A DNA stretch of 16,207 nt, from the IMG/VR virus record IMGVR_UViG_643348545_000010; one strand, given 5' to 3'. Positions 12,845-14,279 of the stretch are shown here, piece after piece. Below the pieces are notes generated by a model. The model made no database searches and was not told where the DNA came from. It saw only the letters and a program-made list of their open reading frames with translations. How positions within the stretch are numbered: the stretch's first letter is position 1; each line of letters starts with the position of its first letter. The stretch comes from a virus. Its lineage: Duplodnaviria; Heunggongvirae; Uroviricota; Caudoviricetes. A program made the position numbers and the translations under genes.

Positions 12845-12898
12845 GGTATTCACATTACATTTAGGTGAATACCATTTCAAGTCTTTTTTGGTATTCAC
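12845..12898. promoter_or_regulatory. Operator-like repeats in the divergent control region between the Icd-like operon and the first RHH operon
   Basis: GGTATTCAC-N11-GTGAATACC inverted repeat (12845-12873) plus a third GGTATTCAC half-site (12890-12898). Confidence 0.5.
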
Positions 12899-12941
12899 TT
12901 TTGTATTACACTGCATCCCGTTATTAATGGGAGGTGCAAAC

Positions 12942-13247
12942 ATGTCCAGGAGTTCTGTTAACAATAAGTCACAGCAACTGAATGCCAGATTTCCACATGA
13001 AGTAGTGAGTGGCATTGAGGCATCCCTACAGCCAGGGGAAACTAAAGCGAATTTTATAGTTACGGCTGTACGCGGTGAGATCGCCAGGCGCCAGGCAGAA
13101 GGAAGTGGAGAAAATCCCCTTGTGTCTTCACTGGATGCCCTAGCTAATGTCGAACAAATCGGCATCAAGGCAGCGGAGGAAATCGGGCAGCTTATCACCG
13201 TTGCACGCGAAGAACTCCAGCGCCGCAAGGCCAAAGAATCAGAATAA
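12942..13247 (+). CDS. Ribbon-helix-helix (Arc/MetJ-like) DNA-binding protein, 101 aa; candidate island repressor
   Basis: ATG 12942 with GGGAGGTG SD; N-terminal pattern LNARFPHEVVSGIEASL ... NFIVTAVRGEIARR fits the Arc-like strand-helix-helix; divergent from the replication operon. Confidence 0.6.
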   Translation: MSRSSVNNKSQQLNARFPHEVVSGIEASLQPGETKANFIVTAVRGEIARRQAEGSGENPLVSSLDALANVEQIGIKAAEEIGQLITVAREELQRRKAKESE

Positions 13248-13249
13248 TC

Positions 13250-13289
13250 ACTATCAGCGCCGTGGCGTGAGGTACTACGGCGCATTGCT
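13250..13289 (+). promoter_or_regulatory. Conserved 40-bp intergenic element with hairpin (copy 1)
   Basis: ACTATCAGCGCCGTGG-C-GTGAGGTA-C-TACGGCGCATTGCT; stem GCGCCGT / ACGGCGC; 38/40 identical to copy 2, with both differences in the loop. Confidence 0.5.
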
Positions 13290-13304
13290 TTACAGGGCAG
13301 TATC

Positions 13305-13532
13305 ATGACCAACAACACACTATCACCAATACAAGACACGCAAACGCAAGATGATGAAATCATCCGGCAAAGGCAGTCAGAAGCCTGCGCCAGACTTGAG
13401 GAAGAACTAACCAGAACAAAAATACCACCACCAGCGCCGCGCTTAGTGCCACCAGAAAAATTTGCCCTTGAAGATTTTGTCGATAAATACCCACGGCGGC
13501 TTAAATCCGGCAAAAACCGACCGCCAGGATGA
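13305..13532 (+). CDS. Hypothetical small protein (75 aa), partner of the first RHH gene
   Basis: ATG 13305 preceded by the conserved element; weak similarity to the 13984-14157 product (TLSP near the N-terminus, E[KR]FA...F motif). Confidence 0.45.
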   Translation: MTNNTLSPIQDTQTQDDEIIRQRQSEACARLEEELTRTKIPPPAPRLVPPEKFALEDFVDKYPRRLKSGKNRPPG

Positions 13533-13651
13533 GTGCACAAAACCGAACTATGAAACGGATTATTCCGTTTCCGGGGCGTTTGTGTGTGTATAAAGAGTAA
13601 GCTATGCTCTTTTATAGCCATAATCGTTACCTCAATTAATGGTTTGGTTAG

Positions 13652-13693
13652 ACGCCCCGTATGTGTTCCCAGCACTGCGGGGCGTTGATTTTT
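13652..13693 (+). terminator. Candidate terminator ending the first RHH operon
   Basis: Stem ACGCCCCG / CGGGGCGT (8 bp), 18-nt loop, followed by TGATTTTT. Confidence 0.4.
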
Positions 13694-13710
13694 GTGTAAT
13701 GGCAAGTACA

Positions 13711-13754
13711 ATGGTAATTACCATGTAGGTATAGTAATGAAGGGTAATTACCAT
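13711..13754. promoter_or_regulatory. Two palindromic operator-like sites upstream of and overlapping the second RHH gene start
   Basis: ATGGTAATTACCAT (13711-13724, perfect 14-bp palindrome) and GGTAATTACCAT (13743-13754), centres about 30 bp apart; the second overlaps the ATG at 13753. Confidence 0.5.
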
Positions 13755-13926
13755 GTCAACACCATTAGAAAAACGTTCGCCTCCATACCAAATGCGATTA
13801 CCGGAAGACTTCAGAGCGCAGCTAGAAGAAGCAGCTAAGGCCGATGGCGACACATCTTTAGCCACTTGGATTAAACGCGTTCTCCGCAAAGAATTACAGC
13901 AACGCGGCATAGAACCCAAAGGATAA
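13753..13926 (+). CDS. Ribbon-helix-helix (Arc-like) DNA-binding protein, 57 aa; not in the ORF track (under 60 aa)
   Basis: ATG 13753, stop TAA 13924-13926. PYQMRLPEDFRAQLEEAAKADGDTSLATWIKRVLRKEL matches the Arc pattern (compare P22 Arc ...PQFNLRWPREVLDLVRKVAEENGRSVNSEIYQRVMESF). Confidence 0.55.
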   Translation: MSTPLEKRSPPYQMRLPEDFRAQLEEAAKADGDTSLATWIKRVLRKELQQRGIEPKG

Positions 13927-13928
13927 AA

Positions 13929-13968
13929 ACTATCAGCGCCGTGGTGTGAGGTATTACGGCGCATTGCT
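13929..13968 (+). promoter_or_regulatory. Conserved 40-bp intergenic element with hairpin (copy 2)
   Basis: Begins 2 nt after the RHH stop, exactly as copy 1; the stems are conserved. Confidence 0.5.
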
Positions 13969-13983
13969 ATGCAGGACAACACA

Positions 13984-14157
13984 ATGACCGATAAAGAATT
14001 GACCAAAACATTATCACCGGCACGGAAAAGACGGCGCAGAAAGATAGAGCATGAATCAGAAAGATTCGCGCCATGTGCTTTTGCCCTTGAGCAATTCCTT
14101 AAAGAGTACAGGGAAACGCGCCCATTGCAGGTATGGCAACGAACTGAACCAGACTGA
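13984..14157 (+). CDS. Hypothetical small protein (57 aa), partner of the second RHH gene
   Basis: ATG 13984 is positionally homologous to the 13305 start; the upstream ATG at 13969 arises from a substitution inside the conserved element. Confidence 0.4.
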   Translation: MTDKELTKTLSPARKRRRRKIEHESERFAPCAFALEQFLKEYRETRPLQVWQRTEPD

Positions 14158-14251
14158 TAGCATTGCCCACCAGCCTGATAGCGGCTATCATCCCCGTGCT
14201 TATGTTTGGGATCATATACACATAAGGCGCAGCGGGTTATCTGTTCAGAAA

Positions 14252-14279
14252 GGCGGCTCCATTTCGGGGCCGCTTTTTT
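14252..14279 (+). terminator. Rho-independent terminator ending the plus-strand RHH operons
   Basis: GCGGCUCC-auuuc-GGGGCCGC followed by 7 T; sits between the convergent RHH operon and alpA. Confidence 0.65.

Follow-up and report, generated by a model that had tools for sequence, protein, structure and literature searches.

Two candidate immunity modules with predicted ribbon-helix-helix regulators and a structured small-protein leader in a capsid-forming satellite of Escherichia coli phage

The 16,207-nucleotide (nt) stretch of viral DNA analysed here (the window; IMG/VR record IMGVR_UViG_643348545_000010) is a capsid-forming satellite of an Escherichia coli phage, of the phage-inducible chromosomal island (PICI) type, and positions 12845–14279 are best read as its regulatory (immunity) zone, present in two different copies. 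Each copy is a plus-strand unit in which operator-like repeats (O1 or O2) precede a gene for a predicted ribbon-helix-helix (RHH) regulator (RHH1 or RHH2), a 40-bp element containing a GCGCCGT/ACGGCGC hairpin and a gene for a small protein (sp1 or sp2). All these parts lie where an earlier annotation, called here the original prediction, had placed them (Table 1). The overall explanation that we favour, with a probability of roughly 0.55, is that the zone consists of two immunity modules with RHH repressors, a structured leader ahead of the sp genes and a reading frame kept open on the opposite strand. The finding itself is real and more general than first seen: the repressor part is familiar in kind, and sp with its structured leader is undescribed and narrowly distributed.

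The two 40-bp elements are identical at 38 of 40 positions, and the sequences flanking them have diverged so far that they cannot be aligned as DNA, both as originally described. The placement of the two differences (13266 and 13275, both C/T) in the loop did not hold. They lie in the upper stem, where a G-C pair becomes G-U and a C.A mismatch becomes a U-A pair. The two hairpins fold at -16.4 and -16.9 kcal/mol (z -2.0 and -2.6).

The suggestion that the element is selected as an RNA structure was assessed with 50 distinct 55-nt sp leaders, which were gathered through the sp protein rather than the hairpin to avoid selection, and which align without gaps. An 11-pair helix is paired in 89% of the cells of this alignment, five of its pairs have changed in both partners (C-G has become U-A at three of the positions, for instance) and none of 500 shuffles reached the observed pairing values. 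Cells with G-U outnumber those with A-C by 103 to 17 overall and by 33 to 3 in the seven core pairs. Because this asymmetry is expected only if the plus-strand RNA folds, the covariation points to selection on the element as a structure of the plus-strand transcript.

The hairpin had been taken to belong to the RHH–sp pair, whereas it in fact follows sp. RHH genes of other genera run directly into an intrinsic terminator, with neither hairpin nor sp, and sp genes that lack an RHH gene carry their own copy of the hairpin, which stands consistently about 17–20 nt before the sp start even in RHH-less arrays. In 116 of 118 copies, drawn from E. coli and viral contigs, the element is placed exactly 7 nt downstream of the RHH stop; it joins shuffled combinations of RHH and sp alleles, thus marking a mosaic junction. 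Copies related to the element are carried by 1691 of 5426 complete E. coli genomes (at most 7 in any one genome), and the 50,697 phage records contain none. All sp types share the GUGAGG loop motif. The hairpin is followed by AUUGCUUUACAGG, with no U tract, and a scan for intrinsic terminators was silent there. Scanning the window against Rfam 15 (E <= 1) returned only C4, c4-a1b1 and isrK, all within 12309–12513, and the element matches no RNA family.

Coding roles for the element were considered and set aside. Stop-codon read-through into an RHH–sp fusion would be possible from the layout, as in both units a lone TAA interrupts the frame that the two genes share, but about a quarter of the copies have an in-frame TAA in the loop (GAGTAACTA variants). 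A +1 frame peptide, YQRRGVRYYGALL, in whose frame both element differences and a third just after are synonymous and which ends in an ATGA overlap, shows many non-synonymous changes elsewhere, and its frame is closed just upstream in several alleles. The start of a short leader open reading frame (ORF) from TTG or GTG is not conserved. For a bypass from GGA-TAA like that of T4 gene 60, the landing frame stops after five codons, and unit 1 has no GGA.

The two small proteins are diverged homologues with the common motif F-A-L-E-x-F-(L/V)-x-(K/E)-Y. Searching 5.8 billion proteins with a profile returned 141 relatives, every one a hypothetical protein of Escherichia or Shigella, and an exhaustive HMMER search over 1.84 billion representatives gave only 30 matches. 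Also consistent with their proposed status as an unrecognized family, sp proteins have no match in Pfam, NCBIfam, PADLOC or PDB sequences, and none of the four proteins of the two units matches the PADLOC defence library; sp2 matches phrog_21027 (2.3e-16). AlphaFold models sp as a disordered chain whose only helix covers the conserved FAPCAFALEQFLKEY motif (predicted local distance difference test, pLDDT, 63), and sp2 has a basic N-terminal stretch, RKRRRRK, and a predicted helix at residues 29–45. The ratio of nonsynonymous to synonymous polymorphism (pN/pS) is lowest in the sense frame (0.26–0.48; sp1 0.48, sp2 0.37). Most likely, sp acts by binding a protein or nucleic acid partner rather than as an enzyme or toxin, although this is a weak inference.

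Genes for sp that lack an RHH partner are found in loci L005, L192 and L194, and a very common RHH-less form, the P0056 type, lies directly opposite the isrK/C4 operon. Locus L005 (E. coli ETEC1746, 1228–1990) holds three tandem sp paralogues and L194 (CP148318, 3700–4750) four, neither with an RHH gene, and most array members carry their own diverged leader hairpin. These arrays suggest that sp has been amplified and diversified in the manner of a cassette.

Both upstream genes look like Arc-type RHH genes, as had been proposed. RHH1 matches NCBIfam NF041551 (YlcI_YnfO_N; 1.3e-16, above its cut-off), a family without an assigned fold, and phrog_6522 over its full length (1.7e-46); RHH2 matches phrog_228, ‘Arc-like repressor’, at 1.5e-6. 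Both proteins have an R-x-P strand motif and a G-(E/D)-(S/T) turn, which we take to be Arc-type features. Searches of PDB sequences for evidence of the fold were uninformative, and comparison of the RHH1 and RHH2 types by hhalign gave an E value of 0.008 yet a probability of 5%. RHH1 aligns as a long form, in which a 42-aa insertion (AEGSGENPL...REELQ) lies between RRQ and RRKAKE of a 59-aa form. The insertion is predicted to fall within one long C-terminal helix (residues 59–100), which, going by this prediction, might support higher-order assembly as a coiled coil. Genomes of many other genera carry the YlcI/YnfO domain with that same annotation; ylcI and ynfO are genes of the K-12 cryptic prophages DLP12 and Qin. 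A survey of one genome per species yielded 66 related loci across Enterobacterales, in which the RHH gene keeps its position, facing alpA-int convergently and about 200 bp from an icd/primase operon that diverges from it.

Upstream regions of 150 bp were compared for at least 12 RHH alleles from E. coli-type satellites. Each allele has its own 9–12-bp motif at about -100, -76 (inverted) and -30, and a conserved minus-strand TTGAC and a plus-strand TGTGTATACT are flanked by the repeats. RHH systems have short operators, repeated or inverted, close to the promoter of the regulator itself, and such sites are present here both as exact repeats in the window, where the 16.2 kb hold no further exact copy of GGTATTCAC, and as allele-specific triplets at conserved positions in at least 12 alleles. 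Since the motif repeated over the two divergent promoters differs from allele to allele, RHH is best read as a putative immunity-type repressor with allele-specific operators. Matched variation of protein and repeat is typical of immunity-specific repressors and their operators, and it supports the orthogonal specificities that the original prediction had suggested for the two predicted repressors.

Several observations weigh against our overall reading. The covariation is modest, the leaders are closely related and several of the apparent events are single lineages. A shifted helix (columns 10–17 with 24–31) fits about equally well, and RNAalifold, run on the 50 leaders, preferred a weak shifted helix of -5.6 kcal/mol. 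One lineage, L253, has apparently refolded into two small hairpins, 14–15 copies have the element without an sp ORF, and the loop GUGAGG is conserved beyond the needs of pairing, which hints at a binding factor. On the protein side, RHH2 stays below threshold for Pfam Arc (0.038) and NF041551 (0.0014), with a weak AmrZ match. The AlphaFold monomer of RHH1 has helices at residues 19–28 and 35–52, with a low-confidence helix at the expected strand position and the N-terminal strand absent, and a Foldseek search of the PDB with this model found no match. Furthermore, the promoter hexamers at O1 were not recovered by a promoter scan, and in one sp class pN/pS does not separate the sense frame (0.26) from the wobble-coincident antisense frame (0.23).

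The two units had been described as a tandem duplication. They are instead two different immunity modules juxtaposed by recombination. Between them lie a remnant of icd, a leader hairpin and a good leftward promoter-like site, of which the remnant and the promoter came with unit 2, and unit 2 with its flanks corresponds to the single module of O157:H7 satellites; thus, a second, different immunity module appears to have been stacked on an older one. Of the 5426 complete E. coli genomes, 52 have the junction between the units, and other stacked combinations are found in loci L084 and L085.

A further property of the zone concerns its other strand. One minus-strand frame opposite RHH1, sp1, RHH2 and sp2 has no stop in 294 codons. 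The equivalent frame has 1.6–6.2 stops per 100 codons in 18 of 19 of the window's other genes, the exception being the 93-codon orf92, which has none. The frame is stop-free in 76 of 77 distinct E. coli variants and, in other genera (L126–L191 among the loci), opposite 61 of 61 RHH genes, where resampling of synonymous codons predicts 26–30. In single-unit satellites, one frame of 333–373 codons passes through the terminator, sp, hairpin, RHH gene and operators and ends as an Icd-like domain. In L002 and L003 its first codon is the stop of alpA, whose frame it keeps, and in L004 and L197 it starts in another frame, near or overlapping the alpA end; the same in-frame link to icd is present in many other genera. 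Apart from its C-terminal Icd part, the translated frame matches no family, and it is rich in Ser, Cys and Leu, as variable as the plus-strand alleles and unlike protein sequence. This antisense, stop-free embedding is the most unusual aspect of the region. From this analysis, we infer that the pattern may reflect selection for uninterrupted translation of read-through transcripts, which would parallel the way translation governs termination in P4 and P1. Of the earlier description of the units as transcribed against the rest of the island, the plus-strand genes stand, but the opposition is not a simple one, as the island-sense strand is also constrained by the stop-free frame.

If the favoured explanation is correct, RHH would bind the allele-specific repeats (three in unit 1, two in unit 2) that overlie the back-to-back promoters, shutting off the leftward icd/C4/primase operon and limiting its own synthesis. 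In Escherichia only, the repressor transcript would continue into the sp gene, whose 55-nt leader, judging from covariation, folds into a 9–11-bp hairpin just before the Shine–Dalgarno sequence. The hairpin may determine how stable the sp message is or how well it is translated, for instance by shielding its 5′ end as a stem-loop. Because the leader is nearly identical in all alleles, it would also provide a homology patch for the reshuffling of RHH and sp alleles that their mosaicism records. The product, sp, would be a mostly disordered basic peptide with one amphipathic helix. Unit 2 may be the relic of a displaced immunity module that still controls itself, and it may give immunity against satellites of that type. 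On the opposite strand, one frame is open from the stop codon of alpA as far as icd, presumably so that AlpA-driven read-through transcripts, by being translated all along, could get past the terminator and evade Rho; they would thus arrive at the replication genes while meeting RHH–sp transcription head-on.

A bolder proposal, which we regard as possible but doubtful, is that the RHH–hairpin–sp operon lies antisense inside a frame of about 330–370 codons that serves as a translated conduit and in which nothing but the lack of stop codons is conserved. The region would then be a convergent-transcription switch of two fully overlapping coding layers, to which sp and its leader have been added in Escherichia alone, with a helper or host partner as their target. 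Ribosomes behind RNA polymerase arriving from alpA would open the bidirectional terminator and fend off both Rho and C4 immunity. Helper-induced AlpA transcription would thereby reach icd and the replication genes, colliding head-on with repressor (RHH–sp) transcription. In P4 and P1, translation of ORFs spanning the immunity RNA region controls termination. If the proposal is true, the antisense frame without stops would offer a clear example from nature of selection that acts on translation as such and not on a protein product, and it would tie AlpA induction mechanistically to termination control of the P4/P1 style.

The 40-bp element might have no function as RNA and be either a DNA-level module boundary, whose homology is kept uniform as satellites sharing a host frequently recombine or undergo gene conversion, or an inverted repeat bound by a protein. 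RHH and sp alleles do shuffle exactly at the element with constant spacing, up to 7 copies per genome give scope for conversion, the half-sites GCGCCG and CGGCGC have their centres 21 bp apart, a spacing that a dimeric protein could use, and the loop conservation exceeds what pairing needs. We nevertheless consider this unlikely, because the diverged copies keep their pairing through double changes (C-G to U-A at three pairs) and favour G-U over A-C by 33 to 3, which only plus-strand RNA explains, and because homogenization alone leaves the constant distance of about 17–20 nt to the sp start in RHH-less arrays unexplained. A different role for the RNA would be that of lambda boxB, with the arginine-rich N-terminus of sp binding its own leader in the manner of N, either to autoregulate translation or to antiterminate. 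Like lambda N, whose leader contains nutL, sp is a small basic protein whose own leader contains a conserved hairpin; the GUGAGG of the loop is conserved as well, and sp2-type proteins carry SPARKRRRRK near the N-terminus. Such a pairing of sp and hairpin is quite improbable, however, as the same hairpin is used by sp1-type proteins, whose N-terminus is acidic and has no arginine-rich motif, and as loop variants do not sort with sp type. In addition, no boxA-like sequence is evident, the 9–11-bp stem and the loop are unlike those of boxB, and no terminator-protected downstream genes or other antitermination targets are apparent, the next feature being the convergent alpA.

Two further explanations concern the genes themselves. 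Were the long minus-strand ORF, a Bro-zone or Icd-like protein, the real gene, the RHH and sp ORFs would be by-products. The frame is conserved without stops far beyond chance, gene callers and the NCBI Prokaryotic Genome Annotation Pipeline (PGAP) annotate parts of it, and PICI genes have been described as mostly unidirectional (PMC10111431). It is nonetheless hard to accept that a protein without family matches beyond its C-terminal Icd part, of Ser/Cys/Leu-rich composition and as variable as the plus-strand alleles, is the true product, when the plus-strand genes have family matches, Shine–Dalgarno sequences, allele-specific operators, promoters of their own and intrinsic terminators right after their stops, and when the YlcI/YnfO domain bears the same name in many other genera. 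That both strands are functional is the more economical reading. The original prediction had also raised a toxin–antitoxin (TA) system, which in its type II form would make each unit a pair of RHH antitoxin and small toxin. Gene order (an RHH gene, then a small gene, in an autoregulated operon) resembles that of many TA loci, some RHH alleles show a sub-threshold match (0.018) to the VapB-like PF07704, and one source labels an sp relative ‘RelE’. This explanation has very little to recommend it, because sp stands alone or in arrays of three to four paralogues without RHH, which argues that it is not a toxin, and because RHH occurs without a downstream partner in other genera (RHH without sp in 66 loci). 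Moreover, sp is predicted to be mostly disordered and matches no toxin or defence family or fold, and the two genes do not overlap but are separated by a structured 57-nt spacer.

The favoured explanation, with RHH as repressor, can be set beside known regulators. Like Arc and Mnt of P22 immI and CopG-like proteins, the RHH proteins are small (about 55–60 aa) with an R-x-P strand motif, a G-x-(S/T) turn and two helices, and they have short repeated or inverted operators over promoters, with self-regulation predicted here. Unlike these, they match Arc below threshold and belong to the YlcI/YnfO family (DUF3950), which has no assigned function; three operator copies cover two divergent promoters; and the long form has a 42-aa insertion with a predicted long helix. 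Both P1 ImmI and the immunity region of P4 (C4 or CI antisense RNA, icd, kil/eta) resemble the window in having C4, a1b1 targets and Icd-like ORFs, but here the RHH–sp cassettes lie on the other strand, and the stop-free frame reaches about 1 kb upstream of icd through antisense genes. We know of no counterpart of the RHH–sp cassette in P1 or P4. As with PICI regulator pairs (Stl/Str of SaPIs; AlpA), the genes stand beside int with divergent promoters before the replication operon and show an allelic diversity that suggests element-specific immunity, whereas Gram-negative PICIs have been described as activated by AlpA and as having most of their genes in one direction.

The zone between alpA and the replication genes is that of Gram-negative PICIs at large, including the lineage of the model capsid-forming PICI (cf-PICI) EcCIEDL933. 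If RHH is an element-specific repressor, it would be the missing immunity determinant of these satellites and would explain their allelic diversity, cross-immunity and module stacking. The sp family with its leader hairpin, present in about a third of complete E. coli genomes, is a compact candidate for a helper- or host-directed effector.

Previous work has described PICI genes as mostly unidirectional and this zone as ‘Bro-zone’ genes with embedded immunity RNAs (PMC10111431), and has called the gene after alpA in cf-PICIs variable and of unknown function (10.1101/2025.02.11.637232). We found no description of the RHH repressor, hairpin or sp of this zone in the searchable literature. The plus-strand genes of the zone are largely missing from current annotation. 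In O157:H7-type satellites (L002, L003 and L004), PGAP leaves RHH2 and sp2 unannotated and calls an antisense ‘Icd-like, incomplete’ pseudogene across them; the same label is given to stretches like the icd remnant between the units.

As expected of a cf-PICI, the window holds int, alpA and a primase gene together with its own capsid, portal, protease and terminase genes, according to the ORF inventory and Pfam. The inventory contains no tail genes within the 16-kb window, to which this statement is confined. A closely related island with similar annotation lies beside roxA/pepT in E. coli 2013C-4282, and annotated E. coli loci show the same architecture. Directly left of the RHH–sp units, C4 RNA, its targets and an Icd-like ORF occur together, as in immunity of the P1/P4 type. 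Complementarity between C4 RNA and the sp leader was inspected by eye and dismissed, as it amounts to a single 6-nt match inside a C4 stem.

Table 1 Positions of the features discussed, from left to right within each group
Feature	Position	Strand	Details
Unit 1
Operator set O1	12845–12898		Three exact GGTATTCAC: 12845–12853 (+), 12865–12873 (-), 12890–12898 (+)
Leftward promoter-like site			TTGAAA-17-TAATGT; overlapped by O1, along with the RHH1 promoter region; hexamers read by eye
RHH1	12942–13247	plus	101 aa; GGGAGG Shine–Dalgarno sequence
Element copy 1	13250–13289	plus	Hairpin 13257–13283 (9 bp), then AUUGCUUUACAGG linker and Shine–Dalgarno sequence of sp1
sp1	13305–13532	plus	75 aa; Escherichia-restricted orphan family
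Between the units
Truncated icd remnant	13574–13621	minus	MAIKEHSLLFIHTQTP, 16 codons; compared with icd1 N-terminus MVAVNHIPHLVHTQTA; module junction
Hairpin	13651–13686		-24.9 kcal/mol, z -3.2; homologous to 12770–12806; followed by UUGAUUUUUGUG
Unit 2
Rightward promoter-like site	13685–13712		From scan; overlapped by O2
Operator set O2	13711–13759		Two ATGGTAATTACCAT palindromes (GGTAATTACC at 13713–13722 and 13743–13752); second GGTAATTACC directly abuts RHH2 ATG
Leftward promoter-like site	13759–13731		TTGACA-17-TACTAT; overlapped by O2
RHH2	13753–13926	plus	57 aa; Arc-like regulator
Element copy 2	13929–13968	plus	Hairpin 13936–13962 (11 bp, 5-nt loop)
sp2	13984–14157	plus	57 aa; family-conserved start; upstream ATG at 13969 in this allele only
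Intrinsic terminator	14248–14280	plus	Of RHH2–sp2 transcript; 13-bp stem and U7
Opposite strand
Stop-free frame, 316 codons	12767–13720	minus	Antisense to sp1, hairpin, RHH1 and O1
Stop-free frame, 264 codons	13632–14429	minus	From alpA stop codon, in alpA frame; antisense to sp2, hairpin and RHH2
Neighbouring features
Icd-like ORFs (two)	~12544–12741 and 12087–12257	minus	NF033153, 1.3e-17 and 2.8e-13
C4 antisense RNA	12309–12396	minus	Rfam, 69.1 bits (gathering score 45)
isrK-like stretch	12422–12500	minus	Rfam
c4-a1b1 targets	12464–12513	minus	Rfam, 46.8 bits (gathering score 46.7)
Strong hairpin	12770–12806		Between icd1 start and O1; -29.8 kcal/mol, z -5.5
AlpA	14427–14615	minus	Pfam, 5e-18
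Integrase	14990–16207	minus	ORF inventory
Terminase, portal, protease, capsid proteins			ORF inventory
DUF4222 protein, D5-type primase		minus	ORF inventory

The immunity zone at 12087–12741 on the minus strand adjoins the RHH–sp cassettes. Within it, icd is itself duplicated, and the 3′ ends of both icd copies form direct repeats (D4 and D5). The strong hairpin left of O1 lies within the leader of the leftward icd transcript and is terminator-like on the plus strand; it and its homologue between the units could be leader structures of icd transcripts or plus-strand terminators that insulate the RHH promoter. The inter-unit hairpin with the UUGAUUUUUGUG that follows it is the probable end of the unit 1 transcript. 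A CACTGCGGGGC(G/T)TT motif of these hairpins recurs upstream of almost every RHH allele.

At the right end of unit 2, two copies of the direct repeat ACCAG(A/C)CTGATAGC stand 21 nt from each other at 14148–14182, overlapping the sp2 stop codon, and a similar CTGATAGC lies 3′ of the sp stop in L192. Outside Escherichia, TTTTTTATGGACTC(A/C)AGAAAC is conserved in several genera after the RHH terminator, about 30–90 nt past the RHH stop (L127, L139, L140, L142, L177, L180, L187 and others), and TTTTTTTATGCCTGAAAAAC, at 14274–14293 of the window, is related to this motif.

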